From assembly GCF_014204945.1 (NCBI RefSeq), contig NZ_JACHMN010000002.1, positions 974,503-1,006,502 on the forward strand: a stretch of DNA of 32,000 bases, read 5' to 3'. Position numbers and translations under genes: made by a program. Below, piece by piece: positions 6,616 to 27,949 of the stretch (the first letter of the stretch is position 1; every line of letters begins with the position of its first letter). The DNA comes from Allocatelliglobosispora scoriae (GTDB lineage: Bacteria > Actinomycetota > Actinomycetes > Mycobacteriales > Micromonosporaceae). The notes beneath the pieces were generated by a model, which had not been told where the DNA came from, searched no databases, and saw only the letters and a list, made by a program, of their open reading frames with translations.

Positions 6616-8568
6616 CTACAGCGTCAGGGTCCAGCTGTTGATGTAGCCCGTGTCGGCCGAGGCCGCGTCCTGCGCCCGCAGCTTCCAGGTGCCGTTGGCG
6701 ACCTCGCTCGACAGGTTGACCGTGTAGGTCTGGTTGATGTTGTCGGCGCTGCCGCCGGTCCGGTTGTGCAGGAGGTAGAGGGTCCCGTCCGGCGCGACCA
6801 GGTTCACGACGAGGTCGCCCTTGTACGTGTGGACGATGTTCACCGCCACCGTGGAGGTCGCGGTGCCGTTGCGGTTGCAGCCCGCGATGGTGATCGGGCT
6901 CTCCACCGCGGCCCCGTTGTCCGGGATCTGCACGTCGGCGGCGTTGGTGCCGGTGCAGCCCGGGGCGCCGGTGACCGTCAGGGAGTAGGTGACTGTGCGG
7001 GTGGCGCCGGTGCCCGTACCCGTGATGGTGATCGCGTAGGTGCCCGCGGGCGTGGACGCCGTCGTCGCGAGGGTGAGGGTCGACGAGCCGCCGGAGGTGA
7101 CCGACGACGGCGCGAAGGTGGCCGTGGCCCCGGCGGGTAGGCCGGACGCGGCGAGGTTGACGGTCTGGGCCGAGCCGTTGGTGAGGGCCGTGGAGATGGT
7201 GGAGGTCACCGAGCCGCCCGGGGCGACCGAGCCGGACGCGGGGCTGGCCGCGATCGAGAAGTCGTTGGCCGCGGTGCAGTACTGCGCCTGCTTGTTGATG
7301 GCGCGGTAGGGGCAGTCGGCGTACTCCGACAGCAGCAGCACGGCGCTCTTGTTGCGGCTGGTCTGCGCGGTGATGATCTCGTCGGGCGGGTAGAAGCCGC
7401 CGTTGGAGACCGGGTACATCTCGAAGGTGTAGGTCCAGACCTGCTGGTTGCCCCAGAGCCAGTCGGTGATGTCGCCGTCGGTGATGTAGAGGTCACTGCC
7501 CTGCTCGGGGGTGTAGTTGTTGGTCGCGGCCATCTGCTGCCCGATGGCGGCGAAGGTGTTGCGCTGGTCGAGCGTGAGGCCCGGCGCCGTGTCGGCCGTC
7601 GTGTAGCCGAACGGCCACAGGATCAGCTCGCCGTAGGTGTGGAAGTCGATGTTGGCCTTGATCTGCTGCACGCCGCCGACCCGGCGGGAGAGCACGAAGT
7701 CGCGCAGGACCTGCGTCTCCGGCGCGGAGAAGGCCGACGGACCGCGGTAGGTCTCCGACGAGGTGCTGCCGCTGGACCCGCCGCAGCAGCCCCAGTTGTA
7801 GCCGAAGTTGCGGTTGAGGTCGGTGCCGACGTTGGAGGAGCCGCTGTTGGGCTGCCGGTTCTTGCGCCACGACCGGTAGGAGCCGGTGGCGATGTCGTAC
7901 TCGCCGCCGTCCGGGTTGAGGTCCGGGATGATCCAGATCTCGCGCGAGTTGACGGCGGTCGTGACCTGGCTGTCGGTGCCGTAGGAGTCGGTGAAGAGGT
8001 TGGCGAGGTAGAGCGCCATCTCCACGGTGAGGTGCTCGCGGGCGTGCAGGTGCGCGTTGAAGAGCAGCTCCGGCTCGTCCTCGTCGGTCGCGACGTTGTC
8101 GGAGATCTTGAGGGCGACGATGTCACGGCCCTCGTAGGACTGGCCGATCACGGTCTTGCGCGCCAGCGTCGGGTGGTCCGCGACGATCTTGTTGATCTCG
8201 GCGGTCGTCTCGGCGAAGTCGTGGTAGCCGGCGTCCGCCGACGGGAAGCCGTTCAGGCCGGTGCCCGACGGGGACTCCGGGCCGGGCAGCGCCTCCAGCA
8301 GGAAGCCGAGCCTGCGGATCTGCGCGACCTCGTCCGGAGTCGCGGTGATGTAGACGTTGCCGTGTTCGACGAGGTCGATCGCGGCGCCGGTCCTGGCGAC
8401 GGCGTTGCGATCGGCGAGGGTCTTCGGTCCGATGACGACATACTGCGCCGACGCGACGGGTGCGTTGCCCTGATCGATCGGCGGGATCGCGCCGGTGGCC
8501 GGTCCGGTGAAGGTGAGGGACGCGGTCACCGCCAGCGCGGTGATGAGCACGGCGACTCTCGGTCGCAT
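6616..8568 (-). CDS. Secreted M14 zinc carboxypeptidase (carboxypeptidase T-like) with Ig-like linker and C-terminal proprotein-convertase P-domain
   Basis: Signal peptide [27 protein letters not shown]. Zn ligand motif HAREH, with an M14-type core (...NPDGGEYD...). The C-terminal 108 aa (...[33 protein letters not shown]...[26 protein letters not shown]) form a P-domain. GGGAGGAA RBS. Confidence 0.92.
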
Positions 8569-8630
8569 GGGTTCCTCCCGGGGGTAGTGGAGACCCTTAG
8601 GAGATCATGAATTTATACGAGTATCAATGT

Positions 8631-9380
8631 CTACTCGCCGGACAGGATCGCCACCTCCAACCGCCGCAGGCGCGCTCCCGGCTCCATCCCCAGCTCCTCC
8701 GCGAGTGTCTCCCGAGCACGCCGGTAGGCGTGCAACGCCTCGCCGGGACGGCCCGCCCGGTAGAGCGCGATCATCAGCAGCTCCCACATCCGCTCGCGCA
8801 GCGGGTGTCGCGCGACCAGCCCGATCAGCTCCGCCGCCACCTGCGCGCAGCGGCCCAGCTCCAGCTCCGCGGCGAGCAGCTCCTCGGTGGCGTTGAGCCG
8901 CATCTCCTGCAGGCGCGCGACCTCCGCCTGTGCCCACTGCCCGGCCGCGCAGTCCGCCAGCGCCTCCCCGCGCCACAACCCCAGAGCCCGCCGCAGGTAC
9001 GCCGCCGCGGCCTCCGGCGACCCCGAGGCGGCCTCGGCGTGCCCGCGGCCGACGAGGTACTCGAAGCAGTGCACGTCGATCCACTCGGCCGGGACCGCCA
9101 GCGTGTAGCCGGGCGCCCGGGTGGCGATCGGCGAGCCCGCACCCCCGGCGAGCAGCCCGCGCCGCAGGTAGGCGATGTGCGCCCGGAGCGTCTTGGCGGC
9201 ACCCCCGGGCGGCGCGGTGTCCCAGACACCGTCGACGAGGGCGTTGCACGACACCACCTGGGGTACGCGCAGCGCCAGCAGCCCCAGGATCGTCCGCTGC
9301 CGCGGCCCGCCGAGCACCACCGCGCCGCCGTCCCCGCTGACCTGGAGCGGGCCCAGCAGGCGAATCTCCACCGTGGACAT
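8631..9380 (-). CDS. Small SARP (AfsR/DnrI/RedD-type) transcriptional activator: OmpR-like wHTH plus BTAD
   Basis: ATG 9380 with GGAG upstream. The sequence reads MSTVEIRLLGPLQVSG......RQRTILGLLALR.....S...LVDGVWD...P.....TLRAHIAYLRR, followed by a BTAD helical region ...ALYRAGRPGEALHAYRRARETLAEELGMEPGARLRRLE. Confidence 0.9.
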   Translation of the reverse strand: MSTVEIRLLGPLQVSGDGGAVVLGGPRQRTILGLLALRVPQVVSCNALVDGVWDTAPPGGAAKTLRAHIAYLRRGLLAGGAGSPIATRAPGYTLAVPAEWIDVHCFEYLVGRGHAEAASGSPEAAAAYLRRALGLWRGEALADCAAGQWAQAEVARLQEMRLNATEELLAAELELGRCAQVAAELIGLVARHPLRERMWELLMIALYRAGRPGEALHAYRRARETLAEELGMEPGARLRRLEVAILSGE

Positions 9381-9410
9381 CAACTCCGCCCTCCACTCTA
9401 TTGTGGAACT

Positions 9411-9432
9411 TCGATGCATCGATTCATGCATG
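9411..9432. promoter_or_regulatory. Perfect palindromes TCGATGCATCGA and CATGCATG upstream of the small SARP gene
   Basis: The 12-bp palindrome lies at 9411-9422 and the 8-bp palindrome at 9425-9432, 31-52 nt upstream of ATG 9380 in an AT-richer stretch. The core GATGCATC recurs at 20289-20296. Confidence 0.3.
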
Positions 9433-9612: not shown

Positions 9613-10830
9613 TTAGACGGGGACGAAGCCTGCGAAGAGCAGCAGGTTCGGCGAGCCCACGCCGGGGTTGATCACCACATTGGGGGTGGCGTTGTTGACC
9701 AGGGCGAGCGCCGTCTGGTCGGCGTTGTCAGCCGGGAACCGCCAGCGCCACAGCGCCGCGACGCCGGCCGCGTGCGGCGACGCCATCGAGGTGCCCGAGA
9801 GCGTGGCGTAGGCGTTGTCGGCGGTGCCGTACGCGGAGTAGATGCCCTGGCCGGGGGCGAAGAGGTCGAGGCACGGTCCGAAGTTGGAGAAGGTGGCCCG
9901 AGCGTCGGTGTTGGTGGTCGCGCCGACCGTGGTGGCCCTCGGTACCCGGGCCGGGGAGAAGCCGCACGCGTTGAGGTTGGAGTTGCCCGCCGCGACCGAG
10001 TAGTGCACGTTCGCGGTGATCGAGTTGGTCACCGCGGTGTCCAGCGGCGGGAAGGCGCTGCCGCCGAGGCTCATGTTGGCCACGCTCGGCGGCGCCGGGG
10101 AGAGGATCTGCTGCAGCGTGACCCAGTTGACCCCGGCGATGACGCCGGCGGCCGTACCCGAGCCCGCGCAGTTGAGCACCCGGACCGAGATGAGCTTGAC
10201 CTGCTTCGCCACGCCGACCGTCTTGCCGCCGACCGTGCCGGCGACGTGGGTGCCGTGACCGTTGCAGTCGGCACCGGTGCCGCCGAACGCGTCGAAGCCG
10301 GGGACCGCGCGCCCGCCGAACTCGACGTGGGTGTAGCGGATGCCGGTGTCGATGATGTAGGCCCGGACGCCGGGTGCGGTGTTGGCGTAGTGGTACTTGT
10401 TGTCCAGCGGCAGGGAGCGCTCGTCGATCCGGTCCAGGCCCCACGACGGGGTCGGCGTCTGCACGCTGACCTGCGTCGTCACCTCCTGGTCCTGGGCGAC
10501 GTACTCCACCAGCGGGTCGGCCGCGACCCGCGCCGCGGTGGCGTCGTCGGCCGCGATGGCGAAGCCCCGCAGGGCGGTGCCGTACTCGAAGGTCGTGCGC
10601 AGGTTGTACTTCGCCTTCAGCTCGTCGCTCGTATTCGACGGCGACGAGTCCTTGAAGACGACGATGTAGCTGCCGGGGACCGCGCCGGGCGACTCGGCGT
10701 AGAGCACCTTGCCCAGCGTGGTGTTCGCGCTCGCCACAGGCAGCGACGATTGGGCGGGTACGCCGGTCAGACCCACCGCGGCGGCGATACCCACCACGAT
10801 GACGAGCCGACGGATTGAACGATTGTTCAT
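9613..10830 (-). CDS. Secreted S8 (subtilisin/proteinase-K-like) serine peptidase with inhibitor-I9-like propeptide
   Basis: ATG 10830 with AAGGA RBS. Signal peptide MNNRSIRRLVIVVGIAAAVGLTGVPAQS. Catalytic triad contexts are DTGI (Asp), GHGTHVAGT (His) and GTSMASPHAAG (Ser). Confidence 0.93.
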   Translation of the reverse strand: MNNRSIRRLVIVVGIAAAVGLTGVPAQSSLPVASANTTLGKVLYAESPGAVPGSYIVVFKDSSPSNTSDELKAKYNLRTTFEYGTALRGFAIAADDATAARVAADPLVEYVAQDQEVTTQVSVQTPTPSWGLDRIDERSLPLDNKYHYANTAPGVRAYIIDTGIRYTHVEFGGRAVPGFDAFGGTGADCNGHGTHVAGTVGGKTVGVAKQVKLISVRVLNCAGSGTAAGVIAGVNWVTLQQILSPAPPSVANMSLGGSAFPPLDTAVTNSITANVHYSVAAGNSNLNACGFSPARVPRATTVGATTNTDARATFSNFGPCLDLFAPGQGIYSAYGTADNAYATLSGTSMASPHAAGVAALWRWRFPADNADQTALALVNNATPNVVINPGVGSPNLLLFAGFVPV

Positions 10831-10924
10831 TGGCCATCCTTCGGTTGATGTGACGGTGCGGCGGGTGCGCACATCTCACCGGTGGACGGTTGGCTTTCGG
10901 TTGCGGTTCGGTTGGGGTGCGGCG

Positions 10925-11419: not shown

Positions 11420-12622
11420 ATGCGCGTCCCTCAGAACCGCGACTTCCGTCTGCTGTGGACCGGCGGCGTCATCTCCGGCCTCGGCTCCTGGCTGCTCATC
11501 ATCGCCGTGCCTGTGCAGGTCTTCCGCCTCACCGGTTCGCCGCTCGCCACCGGGCTGACGGTCGCCGTCGAATCGCTGCCCGCGATGCTGCTCGGGCCCT
11601 GGGCCGGCGTCCTCGTCGACCACTGGAACCGGCGGCGCATCATCGTCGGCGCCAACCTCGCCAGCGCCGCCGGGGTCGGTCTGATCCTGCTCGGCGACAC
11701 CCCGGCCCGCGTCGGCTTCATCTGGGCCGGGCTGCTGCTGGAGGCGGTCGCCGTCGTCCTCCTGCAACCCGCGACGCGCAGCATCGTCCCCGCCATCCTC
11801 GGAACCGGCGACGACCTCGTCACCGCGAACGCCGTCTCGGCCTTCACCGGCGGCGCGATGCGGCTCATCGGTCCCCCGCTCGGCACCGCCCTACTCGCCT
11901 GGGGCGGCATCGGGCTCGTCGCCTGGCTCGACGCGGCGACCTACCTCGTCGCCGCCGGGCTCACCTGCCTCGTCCGCGTCGCCGATCCCCCACGACCGGC
12001 GCTCGTCCTGCGCGAGGTCCCCCGGCACCTGGTCGACGGGCTCCGCCATCTGCGCCGGTCCCGGCTGCTGCGCGGGATGCTCGCCGCGAGCTGGGTCTAC
12101 TGGGCGGCCAACGCCGCGCTGACCGCGCTGCTCGTCCCCTTCGTCGTGCAGCGGCTCGGGCGCGACGGCGGCGACCTGGGCTACGTCATCGCCGGGCTGG
12201 GATGCGGCTTCCTCGTCGGGTCGGCGGTCAGCGGGCGACTCATCGGCCCGTACTCGACGCAGGCGGTTCTGACCTGGTCCTATGGGCTGGTCGGGCTCGC
12301 GTTCCTGCTGCTGTTCAACGCGCCGACGCTGTGGGTGGCGGTGCTGGGAGCCGCGGCGGCGGGAGTGCCGGGGTCGGTGGCGATGGTCGCGACCCAGCAC
12401 CGGATCCAGGTGGCGGCTCCGGAGGAGGTGCTGGGGCGGGTGGGCGCGGTCTTCTACGCCAGCGACGCCACGGCCGCCGTCGCCGGCGCCTTGATCGCCC
12501 CACTGGTCGTCGCCGTAAGCGGCCTCTCGACCGGGCTCAACGCGGTCAGCGTCCTCGTCATCGCGGTCGCGCCGATGACGCTGTTCCTGCTCCGCGACCC
12601 CGCCGGTGCGGAGAGTCGGTAG
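11420..12622 (+). CDS. MFS transporter (EntS/MFS_3-like exporter)
   Basis: In-frame ATG 11420 (MRVPQNRDFRLLWTGGVISGLGSWLLIIAVPVQVFRLTGSPLATG...). The N-terminal 237 aa of track ORF 10709..12622 are shadow sequence. Multiple hydrophobic helices throughout. Confidence 0.88.
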   Translation: MRVPQNRDFRLLWTGGVISGLGSWLLIIAVPVQVFRLTGSPLATGLTVAVESLPAMLLGPWAGVLVDHWNRRRIIVGANLASAAGVGLILLGDTPARVGFIWAGLLLEAVAVVLLQPATRSIVPAILGTGDDLVTANAVSAFTGGAMRLIGPPLGTALLAWGGIGLVAWLDAATYLVAAGLTCLVRVADPPRPALVLREVPRHLVDGLRHLRRSRLLRGMLAASWVYWAANAALTALLVPFVVQRLGRDGGDLGYVIAGLGCGFLVGSAVSGRLIGPYSTQAVLTWSYGLVGLAFLLLFNAPTLWVAVLGAAAAGVPGSVAMVATQHRIQVAAPEEVLGRVGAVFYASDATAAVAGALIAPLVVAVSGLSTGLNAVSVLVIAVAPMTLFLLRDPAGAESR

Positions 12623-12665
12623 GCTATCCAGAGATCGACCTGTCTCACCACCATGGGGTGTCTCC

Positions 12666-14390
12666 GTGTCGTATGTCTTCCTCTCCTACGGCCACGGCGA
12701 CGCAGCCGACTACGTCGAACGGCTCGCCGGATGGCTGGGCGAGGCCGGCGTGCCGATCTGGTACGACAAGGAGATCATCTCGGGTCACCGCTGGTCACGC
12801 GTCATCCAGCAGCGGATCGAGGGCTGCTCCGCGTTCATCGTCGTCATGACGCCGCAGGCGGACCAGTCGGAGTGGGTGGAGCGGGAGCTCACCCTCGCCG
12901 AGAGCCTGGGCAAACCGGTGCTGCCGATGCTGCTCGCCGGTCGGCCGTTCTTCCGGCTCGGCAACCGGCAGTTCGAGGATGTCACCGATACGGCGCTGCC
13001 CGGCTCGGCATTCCTCGCCACCGTCCGCAGCCTGGCCGGGGTCACTCCCCCGGCCCCGCTGACCGTCCTCGGGGCCGCCGAACCGCCGCCCGTGCAAACC
13101 GCCGAACCGGTGCCCGTGCAAACCGCCGAACCGGTGCCCGTGCAAACCGCTGAACCGCTGTCCCTGCGGTCCGGTGAACCGCTGTCCTCCGCGCGGACAG
13201 GTGAACCGCGGCAACGGCAGCCGTCGCCCGGCCGGCCGCGGCTCGGCACCCGGCGCGTCCGGCTCCTGGCCCTCACCGCGTCCGCGGTCGCCGTCGTGCT
13301 GGTCGGGTCGCTGCTCGTGCGGCAGTTCGGCCGGGAGAGCGACAAGCCGTCCGCGCCGCCGGACACCGCAGCCCACGGCACGACTCCGGCCCTCGCCATC
13401 AGCCCGGACGGTCGCCTCCTCTACGTCGCCATCACCCGCATGCACATCACCGGAGGGACCCGAACCCTCACGACCGGCAGCCTGGTCGCCGTCAACACAC
13501 AGGCCGGGACCGTCATCCCGAACTCCCACGCCGAAAACGGCGGGAATGGCATGTCGATCACCAGCGCACCGGACGACGCCGCGATCACGGCGGACGGCAA
13601 GCGGCTCTACCTCGGCCGCTTCACCGACCCGTTCCTGATCCGGATCACCGCGCTGGTCCCGGAGCCGAGAGGTATCGGGCGAGGGGTGGACCTCGGCACC
13701 ACTGCCGACCCGGTCGAGGGGGTCCGCAGCGTGGCGTTGAGCCCGGACGGCAAGCGCGCCTACCTGGCCGACGAGCCGACCGCCACCGTCTCCGTGGTCG
13801 ACACGGTGACGGAGAAGCAGGTCGGCAATCCGATCACCGTCGGCCGGGCGCCGCGCGACCTGGTCATGAACCCGACCGGCACGCGGCTCTTCGCCGCCGG
13901 TTCGGCCGCCTCCACGGTCAGCGTCGTCGACACCGCGACCAACGAGGTCATCGCCGCCCCCGCCGTCGGCCGCGGCCCGCGCGGGCTGTTCATCAGGGGA
14001 GACGGGCGCCGGCTCTACGTCGCCAACGCCGAGGCGGGCGGAGTCTCGATCATCGACACCGGCGACAACACGGTGGTGACGCAGTTCCCTGCGGCCTGCG
14101 GAGCGCATCCGATCGCGGTGGCGGTCTCCGACCAGGGCAACCGGCTGCACACCATCTGCGAGGACTCCGACGTGGTCGGCGTCCAGGATGCCGGGAGCGG
14201 GGCGGCTCTCGGATCTCCCACCGCCCGGACCACGCGCCCGGCGAGGTCGATGCTGCTCAGCCCCGACGGGAAGCGGCTGTATGTGGCGGTCGTGGAGGCG
14301 AAGACGGTCACCATCACGATGATCGACACCACCACCAACACCGCAGTGATGGACCCCATCGTCGCCGACACCTGGCTCGTCGACGGTTAG
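12666..14390 (+). CDS. TIR-domain protein with one TM helix and a C-terminal 7-bladed YVTN-type beta-propeller
   Basis: The TIR_2-like N-terminus reads VSYVFLSYGHGDAADYVERLAGWLGEAGVPIWYDKEI..G..W...I...I..CSAFIVVMTPQADQSEWVERELTLA, with candidate catalytic Glu codon at 12885-12887. The start is GTG 12666, or alternatively GTG 12606 overlapping the MFS stop. A Pro-rich linker follows. RRVR plus LLALTASAVAVVLVGSLLV forms the TM. Seven repeats follow, of the form SPDG(K/R)RLYVA...VSV(V/I)DT....V... Confidence 0.85.
   Translation: MSYVFLSYGHGDAADYVERLAGWLGEAGVPIWYDKEIISGHRWSRVIQQRIEGCSAFIVVMTPQADQSEWVERELTLAESLGKPVLPMLLAGRPFFRLGNRQFEDVTDTALPGSAFLATVRSLAGVTPPAPLTVLGAAEPPPVQTAEPVPVQTAEPVPVQTAEPLSLRSGEPLSSARTGEPRQRQPSPGRPRLGTRRVRLLALTASAVAVVLVGSLLVRQFGRESDKPSAPPDTAAHGTTPALAISPDGRLLYVAITRMHITGGTRTLTTGSLVAVNTQAGTVIPNSHAENGGNGMSITSAPDDAAITADGKRLYLGRFTDPFLIRITALVPEPRGIGRGVDLGTTADPVEGVRSVALSPDGKRAYLADEPTATVSVVDTVTEKQVGNPITVGRAPRDLVMNPTGTRLFAAGSAASTVSVVDTATNEVIAAPAVGRGPRGLFIRGDGRRLYVANAEAGGVSIIDTGDNTVVTQFPAACGAHPIAVAVSDQGNRLHTICEDSDVVGVQDAGSGAALGSPTARTTRPARSMLLSPDGKRLYVAVVEAKTVTITMIDTTTNTAVMDPIVADTWLVDG
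13092..13163 (+). repeat. In-frame 24-bp tandem repeat (3 units) encoding VQTAEPVP in the TIR-to-TM linker
   Basis: GTGCAAACCGCCGAACCGGTGCCC is identical at 13092-13115 and 13116-13139. A third, diverged unit starts at 13140. Degenerate (S/T)GEPL units follow. Confidence 0.9.
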
Positions 14391-18795: not shown

Positions 18796-20256
<1,461 letters not shown>

Positions 20257-20298: not shown

Positions 20299-20374
20299 AA
20301 TATGTCAATTTAGTAGATTGATGTGTCCTGCTCCGTCGTCATATACTCCTCTCTCTCCTTCGAGGGGCGACGCT

Positions 20375-21070
20375 ATGAGACGACGACAGCCGGACCGGCG
20401 ACCGTGGCCGGCGGACAGCTTCCTCGCGGAACTCGCCCCCGACGATCTCGAAGCGCTCATCGCCGCGGGCACCACCCGTGTCTACGACCGCCAGGCGGTG
20501 CTGATCGCCGAGGGCGCCACCGATACCGAGGCACACCTGCTGCTCACCGGCTGCGTCCGGGTGGAGGGCCACACGTCGGCCGGATCCAGCACCCTGCTCG
20601 CCATCCGCATCGGCGGCGACATCGTCGGCGAGCTCGCGGCACTGCACGGCAACCCGCGCTCCACGACGGTCGTCGCCGTCACGCGTACGTCGGTGCGGGT
20701 CATCGACGGGCTGCGGTTCCGGGAGATCGTCAACGCCCGCCCGGCGATCGCGGCGGCCATCCAGCGGACCGTCAGCACCAAGCTGCTCGCCGCCACCCGC
20801 TACCGCATCGACGTGGGCTCCTCCTCCGTGCTCGCCCGGGTGGCGCGGGTCCTGCTGCACCTCGGCGAGGTCTACGGGCGGACCACCTCGCCGGGCACCC
20901 TGATCGACCTGCCGCTGAGCCAGCGCGACCTGTCGTCGCTGGTCGGCGCCGCCGAGCCTAGCGTCTACCGGGCCATCACCGACCTGCGCCGCATGGGGGC
21001 GCTCACCACCGGGTACCGCCGGATCGTCATCACCGACCACGCCCGGCTCCACAAGACCGCAGACTCCTGA
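20375..21070 (+). CDS. Crp/Fnr-family transcriptional regulator (cNMP-binding domain plus C-terminal HTH)
   Basis: ATG 20375 with GAGGGG upstream. The beta-roll has a phosphate-binding cassette, GDIVGELAALHGNPRSTTVVA (GEL...RS(T/A) as in CRP). The C-terminal HTH reads SQRDLSSLVGAAEPSVYRAITDLRRMG. Confidence 0.9.
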   Translation: MRRRQPDRRPWPADSFLAELAPDDLEALIAAGTTRVYDRQAVLIAEGATDTEAHLLLTGCVRVEGHTSAGSSTLLAIRIGGDIVGELAALHGNPRSTTVVAVTRTSVRVIDGLRFREIVNARPAIAAAIQRTVSTKLLAATRYRIDVGSSSVLARVARVLLHLGEVYGRTTSPGTLIDLPLSQRDLSSLVGAAEPSVYRAITDLRRMGALTTGYRRIVITDHARLHKTADS

Positions 21071-21113: not shown

Positions 21114-22373
21114 ATGAATCCGTGGCTGATCGATCAGGTGGTCACCGATCCCGCGGCCATCGCGTCCTCGGCGGAGTGGGTCGCGGGGCTCGGCCCCCGC
21201 GGTGATCAGTTCGATCCCACGGTCCCGACATACGCGGTGCGGGTGCGGGAGATCGCGCTGCGGGAGCGGACCTGGCTACAGCTCCTGCGCGGGCCCGACG
21301 TGCGGATCGACATCCTGGCGATCCCGGGCAACCTCGCCTGGCACGAGATCAGCGACGGCGCGATCACCGCGCGATTCCCCGGCGTCGGCGGCGGCCGGCG
21401 GCTCCCCCTCGACGACCGGGGACTGCTCGCCTATTACGGCCAGCCGCAGCACTTCCTCTCCTTCGCCATGATCGCCTCATCGGACCGGCCCGGCACCGCC
21501 GACCTCCGGGATCTGCTGCGCCAGGACATCCACGCCGAGCGGCTCGCGACGGCCCGCGCCGCGTTCGCCGACGCGTCGACCGGCGACCCCGCGTCGCTCA
21601 GCGCAGCGCTGACGGCGGCGAAGTCGGCGACCGAGATCGCCTACCAGGCGGTGCGCTCGACCGGTGGCGCCGTCATCGGCGTCTACCGCGGCGACCGGCT
21701 GGAGTACCCCGATCTGTTCGGCCTCGGCCGCAACCCCGCCGACCACGACTCCTACGACCAGGGCGGCTTCTCGCTCTGGTACGAGGTGGTCGAGACCGCG
21801 CCGCAGGAGCCGGTCGGGCTGCAGAACCGGATGGTGATCGTCGCCGACGTCGCCGGCTACAGCCCTCGCCCCGAACCGCTGCAGGAGGAGATCCAGCACC
21901 GGCTGCACCGGCTGATGGCGCAGGTGGTCGCGGATCTGAAAGTACGCGAGGCCGGGGTGCAGCGGCAGCCCACGGGTGACGGCGTCAACGTGGTCCTGCC
22001 CGCGGACATCGACCACAGCACGGTCCTGCCGGTGCTGCTGCGCACGATGAAGACCCGGCTGGCCTACGACAACGCCGGGCACGACGACCAGATGCGGGTC
22101 CGCCTCGCGGTCCACATCGGAATGGTGCGCGTGGCGCCGCTGGGCTTCACCGGTGGCGGACTGGTCACCGCGAGCCGGTTGGTCGACAGCCTCGCACTGC
22201 GCACGGTGCTGCAGACGCGGCCGGAGCTGGAGCTGGCGGCGATCGTCTCCGACGTGGTGCACCACGATGTGGCGATACACGGATTCGCTGGTCTCGACCC
22301 GGCCGGATTCGAGGGCGCCGACGTGACCGTGAAGACGTTCCAGGGCAAGGGCTGGATCTGGGTCGCGGAGTGA
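21114..22373 (+). CDS. Two-domain protein: unknown N-terminal ~235 aa plus C-terminal class-III nucleotidyl-cyclase-like domain
   Basis: Residues ~238-417 align by eye to the CHD fold. VIVADVAGYS corresponds to (V/I)LFADIVGFT (metal Asp D245). QPTGDGVNVVL corresponds to K(T/I)GDA(Y/F)MAVF (D289). RLAVHIGMVRVAPLGFTGGGLVTASRL corresponds to R(I/V)GIH(T/S)GPV..G..G..VN.A(A/S)RL. ADVTVKTFQGKGWIWV corresponds to the ..V.LKGK...V.VY.L tail. The usual Asn of VN is Thr here. Confidence 0.6.
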   Translation: MNPWLIDQVVTDPAAIASSAEWVAGLGPRGDQFDPTVPTYAVRVREIALRERTWLQLLRGPDVRIDILAIPGNLAWHEISDGAITARFPGVGGGRRLPLDDRGLLAYYGQPQHFLSFAMIASSDRPGTADLRDLLRQDIHAERLATARAAFADASTGDPASLSAALTAAKSATEIAYQAVRSTGGAVIGVYRGDRLEYPDLFGLGRNPADHDSYDQGGFSLWYEVVETAPQEPVGLQNRMVIVADVAGYSPRPEPLQEEIQHRLHRLMAQVVADLKVREAGVQRQPTGDGVNVVLPADIDHSTVLPVLLRTMKTRLAYDNAGHDDQMRVRLAVHIGMVRVAPLGFTGGGLVTASRLVDSLALRTVLQTRPELELAAIVSDVVHHDVAIHGFAGLDPAGFEGADVTVKTFQGKGWIWVAE

Positions 22374-22385
22374 CTCGGGGCCGGG

Positions 22386-22820
22386 TCACTGCTCCCGGCG
22401 ATAGAGGCGCAGCGCGACGGAGAGCTCCCCGGCGAGGACCGCGGTGCTCACCTGCCGGGGCAGCTCCGCCCAGCCCACGGCGGACTCCGCCTCGATCCGC
22501 CGGAACGTGCCGTCGGCTTCGGTGACGATCACCTCGATCGACCTGGTCGCCGGCTGCCGAGCGGCCGGCACCTCGTAGACGACCCGCAGGTGCACCAGCA
22601 CCGTGGTCAGCCAGGACACCACGGCCGGCTCCCGGCGCACCCGCCTGCGCAGCGGTTCGCCGCAGAGCTCGTAGGTCGCGGCGAGGGTGGCCGGGAAGTC
22701 CAGCCCGAGCTGCTCGGCGAGAATGCCCGCGATGGTGTGGATGACGCTCTCCCGCTCGGTCGGCGCGGTCCCCGCCGAATCGGTCATGAGCGCAGCCGCA
22801 ACCCCTGTCTCGTCCCGCAT
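22386..22820 (-). CDS. Hypothetical 144-aa protein (no recognisable family)
   Basis: This is the C-terminal part of track ORF 22386..23447. Upstream of 22820 that frame runs through a terminator, a hairpin and promoter-like repeats, so ATG 22820 (alternatively 22787) is taken as the start. The protein begins MRDETGVAAALMTDSAGTAPTERESVIHTIAGILAEQLG... It has good GC3. Confidence 0.55.
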   Translation of the reverse strand: MRDETGVAAALMTDSAGTAPTERESVIHTIAGILAEQLGLDFPATLAATYELCGEPLRRRVRREPAVVSWLTTVLVHLRVVYEVPAARQPATRSIEVIVTEADGTFRRIEAESAVGWAELPRQVSTAVLAGELSVALRLYRREQ

Positions 22821-22864
22821 CAGGCGCCCGGCGAGTAGGCGAGTCGCGACATTGGAAGCTCCAT
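22820..22864 (-). other. Leader ORF (14 codons, MELPMSRLAYSPGA; extendable in frame to ATG 22900) ending in TGATG overlap with the 144-aa gene
   Basis: GGGAGG (22879-22874) lies 9 nt upstream of ATG 22864. Its stop TGA (22822-22820) shares one base with ATG 22820 of the downstream gene, which has no SD of its own. Confidence 0.35.
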
Positions 22865-22960: not shown

Positions 22961-23090
22961 GGCGGCTCGGAGGCCCTTGAAGGCCCGGATCAGGCACCGT
23001 ACCGTCGAAATTACAAATAGCTTTCCGCACCCCCGCGAATAGCCATTGAGTACCATTCGGAGGTCGTCGTGGAATCACATTCATGAGAGA

Positions 23091-23123
23091 GGGGGAGCGG
23101 CACAGGACCGGTGCCACTCCCCC
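23091..23123 (-). terminator. Stem-loop terminator after the JAB-fusion gene
   Basis: GGGGGAGCGGCAC (23091-23103) pairs with GTGCCACTCCCCC (23111-23123), a 13-bp stem with one mismatch and a 7-nt loop. It lies 18 nt beyond the stop at 23141-23143. Confidence 0.65.
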
Positions 23124-23140
23124 TCCCCGATCCGGGCGGG

Positions 23141-24133
23141 CTACCTCTGCGGGACCTCCGCCGAGCCGTCCCGCCCGTCGCGATCGGCGACGCTGCTCAG
23201 CAGCTCGCTCACGACCGCCAGGCAGCGCCGAGGCGAGTTGTCCCCGCCGCAGTCGACGACCAGATCCGCGCCACCGGCTCGCAACCGGGCCGGTGAGGTG
23301 GGGAAGTCGAGCGGGAAGCTCAGCTCCCACGCCTCGTCGCCGGCGGTGAGGTGATAGGTCAGCGACAGTCCGGTGAGGACCAGCCTGCTGTCCGGGAAGC
23401 AGCGGCGCAGCTCGGCGTCGAAGACACGCAGGAAGCTCGAGCCCCACGGGCTGGCGTGCCAGCCGTCGGGCACCCGGCGAGCGGCGGTGCCGCCCGACTG
23501 GCCGGCCCGGTGGTCCGCACGCTCGACATGCCAGGCCGACCCCGCGCCGGCCGGGTCGGCGATGATGCGGTCGCGGCGGGCCGAGGCGGCGATGGGGCTC
23601 TCCCCCGGCAGCACGACGAACTGCCCCGCGCTGAACCCGCGCCGGTCCCGGTCGAAGAGGTAGGCGTGCAGGGTCACGACGAGGTCGTTTCCAGCCTGGC
23701 GCCGGACCGGTCCCCGGACCTCGGGCCGGCTGACCCGGCGGCGCGCGCCGACCTCGTCGACCCGGATGTTGGCGATGCAGACGAGGAAGCGCTGGAAACC
23801 GTTGGCCTGCAGCGTTCGGTAGACGGTCGACGCGTCGCCGCCGCTGGGCTCGGCGAGGTTGAGCCCGTGGTGCGAGTGCCAGTCCCCGATGTGCTGCAGC
23901 CCGTGCCGTGCCTGCAGCGCTCTGCCCCGCTCGCTCAGGTAGCGCACGTCCTGGAAGAACGCGGCGGTCTCGTGCCGCGCCTGCGGCCCGGGCCCGAGGG
24001 TGAGCTGCACCGCCGGGGAGCCGCTGTGCGTCCAGAACCCGAAGAGGTCGCCCCCGGTCTCGCGGTCCGGGTACTCCAGCACCCAGTCGGCGATCTCCTC
24101 CAGATCCTGCTCGTAGACCATCACCCGGAACAC
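23141..24133 (-). CDS. JAB/MPN (JAMM-type) metallopeptidase fused to an uncharacterised C-terminal domain (possibly UBC/RWD-like)
   Basis: N-terminal active-site Glu context RETGGDLFGFW (E25). The metal motif is DWHSHHGLNLAEPSGGD, that is H-x-H-x8-S-x2-D, one residue longer than canonical JAMM. C-terminal residues ~222-316 read FLRVFDAELRRCFPDSRLVLTGLSLTYHLTAGDEAWELSFPLDFPTSPARLRAGGADLVVDCGG. The start is GTG 24133 or ATG 24121. Confidence 0.8.
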   Translation of the reverse strand: MFRVMVYEQDLEEIADWVLEYPDRETGGDLFGFWTHSGSPAVQLTLGPGPQARHETAAFFQDVRYLSERGRALQARHGLQHIGDWHSHHGLNLAEPSGGDASTVYRTLQANGFQRFLVCIANIRVDEVGARRRVSRPEVRGPVRRQAGNDLVVTLHAYLFDRDRRGFSAGQFVVLPGESPIAASARRDRIIADPAGAGSAWHVERADHRAGQSGGTAARRVPDGWHASPWGSSFLRVFDAELRRCFPDSRLVLTGLSLTYHLTAGDEAWELSFPLDFPTSPARLRAGGADLVVDCGGDNSPRRCLAVVSELLSSVADRDGRDGSAEVPQR

Positions 24134-24177
24134 GCCGCCACCACCTCGGCCAGGGTGGGCTGCAGCAGGTCGCTCAT
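24121..24177 (-). other. 18-codon bridging ORF (MSDLLQPTLAEVVAACSG) overlapping both neighbours (ATGA upstream, TGATG downstream)
   Basis: ATG 24177-24175 overlaps the TGA (24176-24174) of the 57-aa gene. Its own TGA (24123-24121) overlaps ATG 24121-24119 in the JAB frame. I read this directly from the sequence. Confidence 0.3.
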
Positions 24178-24347
24178 CGGAAATACCCGCTCACGGCGGC
24201 ATCGGTCGCGATCGTGTCGTCGGGCTGCGGCTCCCCGGTGACGACGAGCAGGCCGCTGCGCGTATCGAAGACCAGCTCCTGGCCCGCCCCGCCCGCCACG
24301 TCCCGCAGGGTCGAATCCACCCCCGCCGGTCTGATGCTGTCTGACAT
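24174..24347 (-). CDS. 57-aa protein of unknown function, first gene of the JAB operon
   Basis: A strong SD (AGGAGGAG) lies 5 nt upstream of ATG 24347. The protein is MSDSIRPAGVDSTLRDVAGGAGQELVFDTRSGLLVVTGEPQPDDTIATDAAVSGYFR. The longer track version (106 aa) begins inside the upstream terminator and is rejected. Confidence 0.6.
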   Translation of the reverse strand: MSDSIRPAGVDSTLRDVAGGAGQELVFDTRSGLLVVTGEPQPDDTIATDAAVSGYFR

Positions 24348-24470
24348 CCGCGCTCCTCCTGAACCGCCGGCGGCCGGGCCGCTCGGGCAGCCCGGCCGAT
24401 GGCTTCCTCCGTCAAGGATCGGACACCCGGACCGCCGGTTCTGAAGCGAACCTTGAATGGGCACGTAGAA

Positions 24471-24502
24471 GCGCTGCCGTGGCCATTCGGCCACGGCAGC
24501 GC
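24471..24502 (-). terminator. Perfect 14-bp stem / 4-nt loop terminator after the 62-aa peptide gene
   Basis: GCGCTGCCGTGGCC-ATTC-GGCCACGGCAGCGC. It starts 13 nt beyond the stop at 24515-24517 and is followed on the gene strand by TTCT. Confidence 0.8.
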
Positions 24503-24514
24503 GGGTCAGGTGGA

Positions 24515-24703
24515 TCAGGCGTTACGCGGCGGGGCCGGCGAGCTGACCGGGGTCGTGTCGTAGGCGTTGATCGGGACCGTCGCGGGCACCCGGTCCTGCT
24601 CGGTCCCGGTGTGCTGCGCGTTGGCGGTGAGGTAGCCCGCGGCGGTCGTCACGATCAGCGCGGCGACGACGGCTGCCCGGCGGTATGTCTGCTGCATTTC
24701 CAT
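24515..24703 (-). CDS. 62-aa secreted or membrane-anchored small peptide
   Basis: GGAGGAAGG SD lies 3 nt upstream of ATG 24703. The protein is MEMQQTYRRAAVVAALIVTTAAGYLTANA|QHTGTEQDRVPATVPINAYDTTPVSSPAPPRNA, with an RR n-region, a hydrophobic core and an A-x-A site. The predicted mature part is 33 aa and Pro/Thr-rich. Confidence 0.6.
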   Translation of the reverse strand: MEMQQTYRRAAVVAALIVTTAAGYLTANAQHTGTEQDRVPATVPINAYDTTPVSSPAPPRNA

Positions 24704-24852: not shown

Positions 24853-27800
24853 TCAGGCCAGGCGGGCCAGCAGCGCCGTCAGCCGATCGGGGTCGGGCAG
24901 GCCCAGCGCCGCGAAGATCGCCTGCGCTGCTGCGGCCTGGTGCCGGACGAGTTCGGGATCCTCACCGCTCGCCCGGTGCGCGGCGGCGAGTCCGGCGTAC
25001 GCCCGGCCCAGCTCGCGCTGATCACCGGAGGACTCGGCGAAACGCATCGCCTCGGCGTGCCGGGACCGGGCGTGGTCGGCGTGGCCGCAGTCCATCAGCG
25101 CCTCACCGAGGTTGTTGAGCACCTCGATCTCGTTGCGGCGGTCGCCGATCTCCCGGAACCGGGTCAGCGCCTCCTCGTGCAGCTCCACCGCCCGGTAGTG
25201 CTGGCCGAGCAGGCCCTGCGCGGTGCCGAGGTTGGTCATCGCCGTCGCCTCGCCCACCCGGTCGCCGAGCTTGCGGAAGGCGTCGCCCGCCATGCCGTGC
25301 AGCCGCACCGCCACGTCCAGCTCCCCTCGGCGCTGATGCACGCCGGCGAGACTGCCCCAGGCCCGGGCGAGCGCGTCACCGCTGCGCAGCTCCTCGCAGA
25401 TCGCCTGCGCCGCGCGGTACTGCAGCATCGCCTTGTCGAGATCGTTCATCGACTCGTGGATCGCGCCGAGGTTGGTGAGGGTGCGGGCCTGGCCGATCCG
25501 GTCGTCGATCCGGGCGAGCAGCTCCAGGGCGTAGAGCTGCTGGCCGATCGCGTCCTCGTTGGCCCCCTGCCGCCAGGAGATCCGGCCCAGGGTGCCCAGC
25601 GCGCGAGCCAGCCCCAGATCGTCGCCCCGCTCGGTGAACAGGTCCACGCTGCGCCCCAGCAGCTGCTTCGCCTCCTCGAAGTCGGCGAACCGGGTCAGGG
25701 TCGACCCGAGCTGGAGCAGGGCCTCCGCCTCGCCGGCGCGGTCCCCCAGCGCCTCGGCCGTCCGCAGGGCCGCGCGGTTGAGGGTGAGCGCGTCGGTGAG
25801 GAACCCGCCGTGGTCGAGGTAGCGGAAGAGCACCACGGCGAGCTTCAGCAGGTACTCCGGGCGGCCGTGCTCCTCGGCGTGGACCGTGGTGGCGAGCAGG
25901 CTGGTGCGCTCGCCGTCGAGCCAGGCGAGCGCGGACGCGGGGTCGGGCAGCGGCGGGCGCGCCAGGTCCGGGAGGTCGACGCGGGGGCGCCGCTCCCGCT
26001 CGTCGGGCATGAGCACGTCCATCGCCGCCGAGGCGGTCGAGAGGTAGTAGCCGAGCACCGATGTGATCGCCTCGTCGCGATCGGCGGGACCGTCGGTCGA
26101 TTCGACGAGCTGTGCGGCGTAGAGCGCCATGAGGTTGTGCATGGCGTAGCGCTCGTGCGCGATCGGCCGGATCAGGTTGGCCTCCGCGAGCTCCCTGAGC
26201 AGCAGGTTCGCCCGCGCCGGCTCGATGCCGCCGAGCGCCGCCGCGGCGTAGGGCGTGACGCCGTCGCCGGGGTGCAGGCTGAGCAGGCGGAACAGTCGCG
26301 CGGGCTCCTGGGGCAGCGCGTCGTAGGACCAGCGGAAGACCTCCTGCACCGCCGTGGTGGAGTCGGCGTCGGCGTCGAGCGCGGAGAGCACCGAGGACCG
26401 GTCGGTCAGCTCCGCCGCCAGAGCCGAGAGCTCCTGCCCGGCCCGCAGGGCCAGGCCCGCGCCGGCGAGGGTGATCGCCAGCGGCAGACCGCCGCAGCAG
26501 CGGGCGATCTGCTGGAGGAACTCGACATCCGCGGACTCCCGGGCCGGGCGGATGTATTCGCGCAGCAGCTCGACGGAGTCGTCGAGGTTGAGCAGGCCGA
26601 GGTTGAGGGCGAGGCCCTGGTTGCGGGCGACGAGCCCGCCTAGGCGGCGGCGGCTCGTCACGATCACCAGCGACCCGGGCGCGGTCGGCATCAGCTGCGC
26701 GACCTGCTCGGCCGCGGCGACGTTGTCGAGCAGGACGAGCACCGGGCGGCGCTCGGCGAGGGTGCGGTAGAGGGCGCGCTTGGCGAGGGTGTCCGGCGGG
26801 ATCCGGGCCGGCGCGACACCGAGGGCGGTGAGGAACTCGTCGAGGACCTGCCCGGTCTCCGCCGTCCCGGCCGGGCCGAACGCCCCGAGGTCGGCTTGCA
26901 GGCACCCGCCGGGGTAGCGGCCCTTGATCCGGTGCGCCCAGCCCACGGCGAGGGTGGTCTTGCCGACGCCGGGCGGGCCGAAGATCCCGACCAGCCGCAC
27001 CGAGTTGCGGCTGCCCCGCTGGTCGGCCTCGAAGATCCCGTTGAGCTGGCCCAGCTCGGTGCCCCGCCCGACGATCGAACCGAGCGCCGGGACCAGGGTC
27101 GACGGCGCGACCGGTGCCGCGGCGGCCGGCGCGCCGAGCGTCAGGCTCGGGTCCTGGTGCAGCATCCGCAGGTGCAGCGACTGCAGCAGCGGCGAGGGCT
27201 GCCGGGCCTCCTGCGCGAGCAGCCGCTTGGTCAGCTTCCGGTAGTGGGCCAGGGCCTGCCCGACATCCCCGGCCCGGTAGAGCGCGACCATGTACTGCTC
27301 GGCGAGGCGCTCGTTGGTGAAGTGCCGGGTGACCAGGCCCCGGATCACGTCGAGCAGCTCGACGTGCAGGCCCGCGTCCAGCCAGGCGCGGTTGCGCGAC
27401 AGGCACGCCTCGAACCACTGCTGGCGCAGGGTCGCGCCGTGCTCGCGCAGCCACAGGCTGTCGGTACGCGCGAACGGAACCCCCCGCCACAGCTCCAGCG
27501 CGTCGTCGAGCATGTGCCGCGCCGCCTCGCCGTACCGGGTCGCCTGCCGCATCAGGTGCCCGAACAGGTGCACGTCGACGAGCAGCGGATCCACGTCGAT
27601 CGTGTAGCCGTCGCCGGTCTTGCGGACACCCACCCCGAGCGGCTTGAGCTTGTCGCGGATGCGGGAGATGTAGACGTGGACCAGCGACGCCGCGGGCGGC
27701 GTATCGCCCCAGACCCGGCTCAGCAGATCCTCGATGGACACCGCCTCGCCGGCCGAGAGGAGCAGCACGGCGAGGACCGCCTGGAGCTTCGTCGGCCCGC

Positions 27801-27870
27801 CGTCCACCTCGACCTCACCGGAACGGATCTGCATGGCTCCCAGCAGCCGAAACACCGGTTCCTCTGGCAT
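24853..27870 (-). CDS. AfsR-type large SARP regulator: wHTH-BTAD plus NB-ARC (STAND ATPase) plus TPR array
   Basis: The N-terminus reads FRLLGAMQIRSGEVEV...KLQAVLAVLLLSAGEAVSIEDLLSRVWGD...YISRIRDKL, followed by a BTAD. Walker A is GIFGPPGVGKTT and Walker B is VLVLLDNV. The C-terminal ~400 aa are TPR-like repeats (...ALGDRAGEAEALLQLG...). The start is ATG 27870, or alternatively ATG 27918. Confidence 0.92.
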   Translation of the reverse strand: MPEEPVFRLLGAMQIRSGEVEVDGGPTKLQAVLAVLLLSAGEAVSIEDLLSRVWGDTPPAASLVHVYISRIRDKLKPLGVGVRKTGDGYTIDVDPLLVDVHLFGHLMRQATRYGEAARHMLDDALELWRGVPFARTDSLWLREHGATLRQQWFEACLSRNRAWLDAGLHVELLDVIRGLVTRHFTNERLAEQYMVALYRAGDVGQALAHYRKLTKRLLAQEARQPSPLLQSLHLRMLHQDPSLTLGAPAAAAPVAPSTLVPALGSIVGRGTELGQLNGIFEADQRGSRNSVRLVGIFGPPGVGKTTLAVGWAHRIKGRYPGGCLQADLGAFGPAGTAETGQVLDEFLTALGVAPARIPPDTLAKRALYRTLAERRPVLVLLDNVAAAEQVAQLMPTAPGSLVIVTSRRRLGGLVARNQGLALNLGLLNLDDSVELLREYIRPARESADVEFLQQIARCCGGLPLAITLAGAGLALRAGQELSALAAELTDRSSVLSALDADADSTTAVQEVFRWSYDALPQEPARLFRLLSLHPGDGVTPYAAAALGGIEPARANLLLRELAEANLIRPIAHERYAMHNLMALYAAQLVESTDGPADRDEAITSVLGYYLSTASAAMDVLMPDERERRPRVDLPDLARPPLPDPASALAWLDGERTSLLATTVHAEEHGRPEYLLKLAVVLFRYLDHGGFLTDALTLNRAALRTAEALGDRAGEAEALLQLGSTLTRFADFEEAKQLLGRSVDLFTERGDDLGLARALGTLGRISWRQGANEDAIGQQLYALELLARIDDRIGQARTLTNLGAIHESMNDLDKAMLQYRAAQAICEELRSGDALARAWGSLAGVHQRRGELDVAVRLHGMAGDAFRKLGDRVGEATAMTNLGTAQGLLGQHYRAVELHEEALTRFREIGDRRNEIEVLNNLGEALMDCGHADHARSRHAEAMRFAESSGDQRELGRAYAGLAAAHRASGEDPELVRHQAAAAQAIFAALGLPDPDRLTALLARLA

Positions 27871-27949
27871 CGTCACGAGTACATGGTGCAGAGTGTCCAG
27901 TCGGCAGACAAGGCTCATAGGACCTATCCGGGCCGATCGGTCCGAGCGG

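Follow-up and report, generated by a model that had tools for sequence, protein, structure and literature searches.

A two-gene JAB peptidase locus of Allocatelliglobosispora scoriae as the probable remnant of an E1/E2/JAB cassette with a small candidate tag

Recent work has established that the Cap2/Cap3 proteins of cyclic oligonucleotide-based antiphage signaling systems (CBASS) and the Bil and Bub operons are genuinely related to eukaryotic ubiquitination, and several of them function in phage defence. They combine an activating enzyme (E1), a conjugating enzyme (E2) and a peptidase of the JAB/JAMM (MPN+) class, the signature of which comprises a catalytic Glu and the zinc site H-x-H-x7-S-x2-D. 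Here, we analyzed a 32-kilobase (kb) stretch of the genome of the actinomycete Allocatelliglobosispora scoriae (~70% GC), hereafter termed the window, to which all positions of its features refer. In this window a JAB peptidase gene is preceded by a gene for a protein of 57 amino acids, a pair that an earlier note, made from the sequence alone, had considered a possible minimal conjugation or deconjugation module without an E1. This proposal did not hold, since close relatives carry an E1 gene and a gene for a predicted catalytic E2 between and after these two genes. Instead, we suggest, with a probability of roughly 70%, that the window harbors the two-gene remnant of a cassette encoding a small protein, an E1, a JAB peptidase fused to an RWD-like domain (JAB-RWD) and an E2, and that the small protein would serve as a trimmed tag in the parent cassette.

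Among the described systems, type II CBASS with Cap2/Cap3 and 6A-MBL resemble the cassette in that a JAB peptidase is combined with an adenylation domain of the E1 type and an E2 that has a catalytic Cys, while a beta-grasp ubiquitin-like protein is lacking. However, the E1 and E2 of the cassette are separate proteins, both of which are absent from the window, whereas Cap2 is an E2-E1 fusion. Moreover, the cassette is devoid of a CD-NTase or a metallo-beta-lactamase and adds a protein of ~58 amino acids as well as the RWD-like domain on the JAB protein. Scanning the window neighbours with PADLOC and Pfam likewise yielded no CD-NTase and no Cap2; only the JAB model matched.

The Bil (BilABCD) and Bub/6E operons share the four-component layout of small modifier, E1, E2 and JAB peptidase. 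In Bil, Bub and CBASS systems, the JAB peptidase either processes a pre-protein so that its C-terminus becomes exposed or undoes conjugates (PMC11601596); in Bil and Bub, it is the C-terminus of the modifier that is freed from a precursor or fusion. An inactive E2/RWD-like domain has already been noted in 6E operons (Iyer 2006, PMC1779556). The modifiers of Bil and Bub are, however, beta-grasp proteins that end in Gly, whereas the candidate of the cassette ends with Gly-aromatic-aromatic. In addition, the cassette contains neither DUF6527/BubE nor a JAB-N domain nor a JAB-E1 fusion, and none of the window genes scanned encodes a DUF6527 protein. None of the operon types 6a to 6e (Iyer 2006, PMC1779556) has the architecture of the cassette, and the ubiquitin-like systems of Kaur et al. 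2020 comprise a fusion of the ubiquitin-like protein to an E2 together with a RING E3.

The pairs QbsD/QbsE and Mec+/CysO correspond to what we propose for the cassette, as a JAB peptidase trims the C-terminus of a small protein for adenylation by a ThiF-type E1. In contrast to the cassette, their carriers are beta-grasp proteins with a Gly-Gly end, their E1 carries a rhodanese domain and an E2 is lacking; the cassette relatives possess a Cys/His E2 and no rhodanese. Pup-type tagging employs a disordered tag ending in GGQ or GGE together with the ligases PafA and Dop. The tail of the window protein reads SGYFR, and the window genes scanned include no member of a Pup ligase family, in agreement with the earlier note, which had set the 57-residue protein apart from Pup. 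Finally, the core of the eukaryotic BRISC and BRCA1-A complexes pairs the JAMM enzyme BRCC36 with BRE/BRCC45, a UEV-type E2 variant without a Cys, reminiscent of the JAB-RWD combination. These are multi-subunit complexes that act on K63 ubiquitin chains, whereas in the window a single bacterial protein combines both folds; the likeness is structural only and shows homology no further than the level of the fold. A literature search retrieved no description of the cassette, which is apparently an undescribed variant of the bacterial E1/E2/JAB conjugation systems.

The two genes of the window and the elements that belong to them are as follows, with the underlying evidence in parentheses.

23141..24133, minus strand: JAB-RWD fusion gene, 330 amino acids, GTG start (open reading frame (ORF), homologues, alignment, codon-position GC)
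23564..24133, minus strand: JAB/JAMM metalloprotease domain, residues 1 to ~190, with E25, H86, H88, S97 and D100 (Pfam, PADLOC, alignment, model)
23174..23470, minus strand: E2/RWD-like domain without a catalytic Cys, residues ~222-320, with the flap FPLDFPTSP (AlphaFold2, Foldseek, hhalign)
24174..24347, minus strand: gene for the 57-amino-acid small protein, a pro-modifier candidate, ATG start (ORF and AGGAGG; family alignment)
24355..24360, minus strand: Shine-Dalgarno sequence AGGAGG, 7 nucleotides 5′ of the ATG of the small-protein gene (read from the sequence)
24121..24177, minus strand: 18-codon ORF (MSDLLQPTLAEVVAACSG, then stop), the ATG of which overlaps the stop codon of the small-protein gene (ATGA) (DNA alignment)
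23089..23125, minus strand: GC-rich hairpin of 18 bp, starting 16 nucleotides past the JAB stop codon, a likely terminator (RNA folding, inverted repeat)
24471..24502, minus strand: perfect hairpin of 14 bp between an upstream gene for another small protein and the 57-residue protein gene (inverted repeat)

A homology search with the window JAB protein yielded 127 full-length relatives from Micromonosporaceae, Nocardia, many cyanobacteria and metagenomes. The gene contexts of nine relatives were examined, and a scan of a genome collection contributed a further 80 loci. Gene content was surveyed by tblastn in 88 related loci (labelled L001 and so forth) plus the window, that is, in 89 sequences from actinomycetes, cyanobacteria, Bacteroidota, Caldisericota and other phyla. 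Residue conservation of the JAB protein was judged on an alignment of 40 homologues.

A ThiF-type E1 gene and a gene for an E2 of ~147 amino acids are both located beside the JAB gene in 78 of the 89 sequences. Nine incomplete loci stop at contig ends within 1.2 kb of the JAB gene, and partners are missing despite ample flank only in the plasmid locus L027 and in the window. L027 (positions 8001-9364 of plasmid pREB3 of Acaryochloris marina MBIC11017) has retained JAB-RWD and the 147-residue E2, and tblastn detected neither the small protein nor an E1 in the 8 kb to either side. Of the 89 sequences, the window alone is devoid of both the E1 gene and the 147-residue gene although many kilobases of flank are at hand on both sides. 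The order small protein-E1-JAB-E2 is found in actinomycetes and in all five nearest relatives of the window JAB protein (49-60% identity, among them L006), while JAB-E2-small protein-E1 is found in cyanobacteria, Bacteroidota and Caldisericota; a split arrangement of the four genes was not encountered among the 89 sequences. At least six phyla possess the cassette, and its carriers include Bacteroidales of the gut, cyanobacteria that form blooms and actinomycetes that produce antibiotics.

The E1 of the relatives matches the Pfam family ThiF with E=3.9e-29 and the 6A-MBL model cap2_3 with E=1.4e-17, and contains a GxGxxG nucleotide-binding motif and two invariant CxxC pairs. In the alignment of the 147-residue family, an invariant H91 (MHTL) and a nearly invariant C103 (ICHY) are positioned 12 residues apart, and a FPxxxP flap is present. 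The family profile matches the RWD domains of FANCL and RNF25 as well as UBE2T/UBE2K in the PDB, where a search with the E2 sequence gave nothing significant. We consider this Cys/His protein to be an E2, for which conjugating activity is predicted.

Some variation within these two families was also observed. In the E2 of L010 (Nocardia bovistercoris) the catalytic Cys is replaced by Ser (RISHC). Within the E1 family, C, S, A or E occupies the crossover-loop position, whereas the Cys in R-H-x-C-G is nearly invariant. The Ser of L010 and the variable crossover loop recall the oxyester chemistry reported for Bub.

In the window, E1 and E2 are missing. Three E1 and three E2 proteins from relatives, used as tblastn queries against the whole 32 kb, gave nothing significant, and none of the E1 queries produced a match at E<1; the statement of the earlier note that no E1 is present hence stands for the entire stretch. 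No E2 remnant was found downstream of the JAB gene, either in any of the three frames or by tblastn (E up to 10), and its place is occupied by the hairpin at 23089..23125, which has a folding energy of -41 kcal/mol (z=-2.5). As every close relative carries both genes, the absence of E1 and E2 represents a derived loss rather than a design, and two deletions from a complete cassette constitute the simplest history.

The site of the first deletion may still be visible. The 18-codon ORF opens with Met-Ser at the position where the E1 gene starts in the relatives, and closes at the JAB start. The DNA alignment of this junction shows that CGATGAGC is common to the window and L001, and similar ATGAGC junctions occur in L002 and L086. 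These similarities suggest that the short ORF is likely a vestige of the deleted E1 gene; beyond this ATGAGC junction, tblastn (E up to 10) detected no E1 remnants in the window.

The two remaining genes are intact and lie on the minus strand, and their coordinates and sizes were correctly given before. The proposed strong Shine-Dalgarno signal of the leading gene is likewise borne out by AGGAGG, and 40 nucleotides separate its stop codon from the JAB start, where GAGGTGG precedes the GTG. The GC content at third codon positions (GC3) amounts to 0.86 for the 57-codon ORF and 0.94 for the JAB gene, the C-terminal third of which reaches 0.91, and drops to 0.65 in the 300-nucleotide spacer downstream of the JAB gene. 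Both ORFs thus show the codon-position GC pattern typical of real genes. The hairpin at 24471..24502 forms the 5′ boundary of the two-gene unit. Because hairpins flank the pair on both sides, the two genes look like a self-contained bicistron. A scan for the sigma-70 promoter and U-tract terminator consensus gave no match, and both hairpins are devoid of U-tracts.

The small protein belongs to a conserved family. A homologue adjoins the JAB gene in Catellatospora (tblastn E=1e-18), and homologues were found beside the JAB, E1 and E2 genes in at least 45 loci, so that the partnership with this JAB subtype, presumed before from a single sequence, extends to other genomes. The family members comprise 57-73 amino acids and share an N-terminal helix, a hairpin of the pattern L-V-F-D-P-x-T-G-x-L-V-V, a P-D-x-V-V-A-D stretch and the tail x-G-[F/Y]-[F/A]; F27, D28 and G54 are invariant in the family alignment. 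The window protein displays the conserved helix, the hairpin LVFD(T)RSGLLVV and the tail SGYF-R, and deviates in the FDP motif, where it lacks a Pro that is almost universal in the family. Library and profile searches revealed no Pfam, NCBIfam, PHROG or PDB relative, and as judged from its sequence the protein appears to have neither the length nor the order of elements of a standard beta-grasp fold.

The residues past the tail motif of the small protein differ between loci. In L087 the protein terminates exactly at the tail motif (GGYF, then stop), one residue follows in the window (R) and in other loci (G or S), and up to five unrelated residues follow G-[F/Y]-[F/A] in others. In six loci (L004/L005, L016, L021, L023 and L025 of cyanobacteria, and L039) the reading frame of the small protein continues into the N-terminus of E1, with only 3-5 linker residues after the GFF motif. 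Since variable residues or a fusion follow a conserved tail, the small protein looks like a precursor that is trimmed to a fixed C-terminus. It is the best modifier candidate and would most likely act as a ubiquitin-like tag in the complete cassette. The earlier view that no recognizable ubiquitin-like protein is encoded therefore remains correct as far as a beta-grasp protein is concerned, but the 57-residue protein is itself the best candidate for a modifier.

The putative trimming enzyme carries the catalytic residues of a JAB peptidase. E25 (ETGG), H86, H88, S97 and D100 are invariant across the 40 homologues, and the spacer from H88 to S97 comprises 8 residues throughout the family as compared to the canonical 7. 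The complete catalytic set and the additional spacer residue, both of which had been noticed in the window protein before, are therefore family traits. The protein matches the Pfam family Prok-JAB with E=1.9e-5 (24.9 bits, with a cut-off of 25), the JAB models of PADLOC with E=1.1e-11 and the NCBIfam model 6A-MBL cap2_3 with E=3e-7; a sequence search of the PDB with the JAB family yielded nothing significant. An AlphaFold2 model built on the homologue alignment (confidence score pLDDT 87.6) matches 6fnn, the ubiquitin-bound Rpn11 homologue of Caldiarchaeum, in Foldseek (E=7.6e-8), as well as AMSH, BRCC36, Rpn11 and CSN5 with a probability of 1.0, BRCC36 being among the top matches. Taken together, the protein carries the JAB/JAMM catalytic set and, according to the model, the MPN fold, and peptidase activity is predicted.

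The C-terminal domain is kept family-wide, and W225, P274 and P278 (the latter two being prolines of FPxxFPxxxP) are nearly invariant. A separate AlphaFold2 model of the domain (pLDDT 89.7) shows a helix, three strands, the FPLDFP flap, two strands and a long helix in this order. UBC-type E2 enzymes account for ~40 of the 50 top Foldseek matches of this model in the PDB, with weak scores (E 0.025-0.5, the best being E=0.025; TM 0.3-0.49). In line with this result, the domain profile aligns with the E2 family profile of the cassette (hhalign E=5.6e-5, probability 66%) over the flap region Y-x-R-x-x-x-P-x-x-[F/Y]-P-x-x-x-P. These models and alignments support an E2/RWD-like fold, as the earlier note had supposed. 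In contrast, the Cys of VVDCGG (C295), which had been counted among the E2-like features, is unique to the window sequence, and the 40 homologues contain no conserved catalytic Cys or HPN-type His in this domain. Because neither residue is conserved, we regard the domain as RWD/UEV-like and not as an active E2.

In a profile search of 1.84 billion representatives, the C-terminal domain was found in 241 proteins, including stand-alone forms, 3-4 tandem repeats and kinase fusions. Among P0150-P0154 and P0163, the RWD-like domain is found both as 3-4 tandem copies, in proteins with a Cys among the last few residues, and fused to protein kinases. One of the tandem-repeat homologues, P0150, shows a sub-threshold Pfam match to BRE, the UEV protein that is paired with BRCC36 as described above.

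In the complete cassette, the small protein would be synthesized in a precursor form, which is either extended by 0-5 residues past G-[F/Y]-[F/A] or fused to E1, and the JAB peptidase would trim it after this motif. The non-catalytic RWD/UEV-like domain would probably hold the tag or dock E1 or E2. E1 would then adenylate the new C-terminus of the trimmed tag, which would be passed as a thioester to the cysteine of E2 and from there onto a target, and the JAB peptidase may also undo the conjugation. In the lineage of the window, the E1 gene would have been deleted between the stop codon of the small-protein gene and the ribosome-binding site of the JAB gene, and the E2 gene would have been replaced by the hairpin and unrelated DNA of lower GC content. 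With E1 and E2 absent, local conjugation is impossible unless both are supplied from elsewhere in the genome. At most, the pair might produce the small protein and clip off its terminal Arg, and it is probably a relic, i.e. a decayed copy of the cassette.

Several observations weigh against this interpretation. Both genes are intact, display normal codon bias and have retained all invariant and nearly invariant residues of the JAB family. Likewise, the strong Shine-Dalgarno sequence and GAGGTGG have been kept, and a pair that is still useful would look alike. Being short, the ATGAGC scar might have arisen by chance, with a likelihood of a few per cent. The argument for a modifier role of the small protein draws solely on gene order, the fusions and the conservation of the tail. 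Finally, the search for E1 and E2 elsewhere in the genome was indirect, as it covered one contig and word-sharing homologues only.

The strongest alternative concerns the parent cassette. The small protein may be an accessory subunit or regulator of E1, so that E1, E2 and JAB would act on another C-terminus, as do Cap2 and Cap3; the real substrate could then be the tail of E1 itself or an enzyme encoded nearby. The fusions of the small protein to E1 in several cyanobacteria and one other lineage are a classic sign of physical partners, the E1 tails carry a similar D-[G/N]-[F/I]-F-[G/A] motif, and the nearest library models for both JAB and E1 are the CBASS-type and 6A-MBL Cap2/Cap3 models. However, the variation in length past G-[F/Y]-[F/A], including the protein of L087 that ends at GYF, fits a processed C-terminus better, and no fixed substrate gene or cyclase accompanies the cassette across phyla in the contexts examined. 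We therefore consider this explanation unlikely.

The E1 tails merit a separate remark. In L002, L004, L009, L013, L086, L087 and others, the E1 ends with an acidic tail that contains a motif resembling the tail of the small protein, for instance DDGFFG, EEDNIFAS, DESIFAAG or SGFFGA, each directly followed by the stop codon. Such a tail could be an autoinhibitory pseudo-substrate or a second substrate for adenylation.

Alternatively, the parent cassette may constitute a novel ubiquitin-like pathway, in which a non-beta-grasp tag of ~55 amino acids with a Gly-aromatic-aromatic C-terminus would be matured by JAB-RWD, activated by the ThiF-type E1 and carried by the Cys E2 under the control of a STAND sensor, while the window pair would be a working sub-module of it that is either served in trans or repurposed as a protease-peptide signaling pair. 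This possibility appears to be a minor one.

A split system, in which E1 and E2 genes of this family at another place in the genome would supply the enzymes that activate and conjugate the 57-residue protein while the local JAB-RWD processes and deconjugates it, appears quite improbable. It would explain why both genes are intact, have kept every conserved residue of the JAB protein and show good signals for translation as well as a coding-type GC3, and why the adjoining STAND regulator is intact as well. On the other hand, the four genes are contiguous in the 78 sequences mentioned above, with no split arrangement seen, and the window protein has lost the near-universal Pro of FDP. Moreover, the indirect check through word-sharing homologues found neither a further JAB paralogue nor any E2 homologue on the 4.69-Mb contig of the window. 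A new, conjugation-independent task, in which JAB-RWD matures or degrades the 57-residue protein, e.g. to release a signaling or regulatory peptide under STAND control, would suit two intact genes in a hairpin-bounded, self-contained-looking bicistron, but is highly improbable, as it has no precedent within the family, would concern the sole such locus among the 89 sequences and would leave little to process, given that only an Arg follows the conserved tail.

Returning to the preferred reading, a two-gene remnant, the window mainly illustrates the decay of a cassette and cautions against taking a truncated locus for a minimal system. At the same time, it draws attention to a conjugation-like cassette that is uncharacterized and widespread and has a candidate tag of unusually small size. 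Three features of this cassette are unusual, namely a catalytic E2 that is accompanied by a second, inactive E2-like domain on the protease, the apparent very small tag without a beta-grasp fold, and the regular linkage to STAND NTPases. If the role as a tag proves true, the cassette would widen the definition of a ubiquitin-like modifier and offer a compact system for study.

The neighbourhood of the pair retains further traces of the cassette context.

24515..24703, minus strand: gene for a small secreted or membrane protein of ~62 amino acids (tblastn with the L001 homologue, E=1.3e-8)
24853..27918, minus strand: BTAD-NB-ARC-TPR (SARP/STAND) regulator (Pfam; orthologues in L001 and L086)
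20318..21070, plus strand: Crp-type regulator that binds cyclic nucleoside monophosphates (41% identity to a cassette neighbour in L086)
21114..22373, plus strand: gene for a 419-residue protein beside the Crp-type regulator (no family match)
22386..22841, minus strand: gene for an ORFan of 151 (or 133) amino acids (coding-type GC3)

The ~62-residue protein gene (GC3 0.92) has homologues in L001 and L086 and represents a conserved upstream neighbour in the actinomycete relatives. Orthologues of the BTAD-NB-ARC-TPR regulator are located directly upstream of the cassette in the same two loci, with 52-56% identity to L001 over NB-ARC and TPR and 41% to L086. As tblastx comparisons of whole loci with the window were swamped by high-GC noise, only this STAND orthology was usable from them, and BLAST at the protein level was employed instead. 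In the wider survey, a STAND NTPase with a DNA-binding N-terminus is found beside the cassette in ~16 cyanobacterial and four actinomycete loci and is a good candidate for a sensor or transcription activator.

On the other side of the pair, the C-terminal half of the 419-residue protein shows 32% identity (E=5e-25) to the product of the gene right after E2 in L088. Its VADVAGYS…GDG motif gave the impression of a nucleotide cyclase, which is unverified and finds no support in Pfam or the PDB. The 151-residue gene sits where the relatives carry other genes after E2. It was considered as a replacement E2 and rejected, since a search of 5.8 billion proteins found no homologue, the family libraries gave no match and a terminator-like hairpin lies between it and the JAB gene.

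Elsewhere in the window, the protein encoded at 12606-14390 (plus strand) combines an N-terminal TIR_2 domain with a beta-propeller, an architecture that is common in bacterial conflict systems. In addition, three secreted-type proteases are encoded on the minus strand at 6616-8568, 18796-20256 and 9613-10872. Two of them, an M14 carboxypeptidase and a trypsin-like protease, have proprotein-convertase P-domains, and the third is a subtilase; a small SARP regulator is encoded close by, at 8631-9431.

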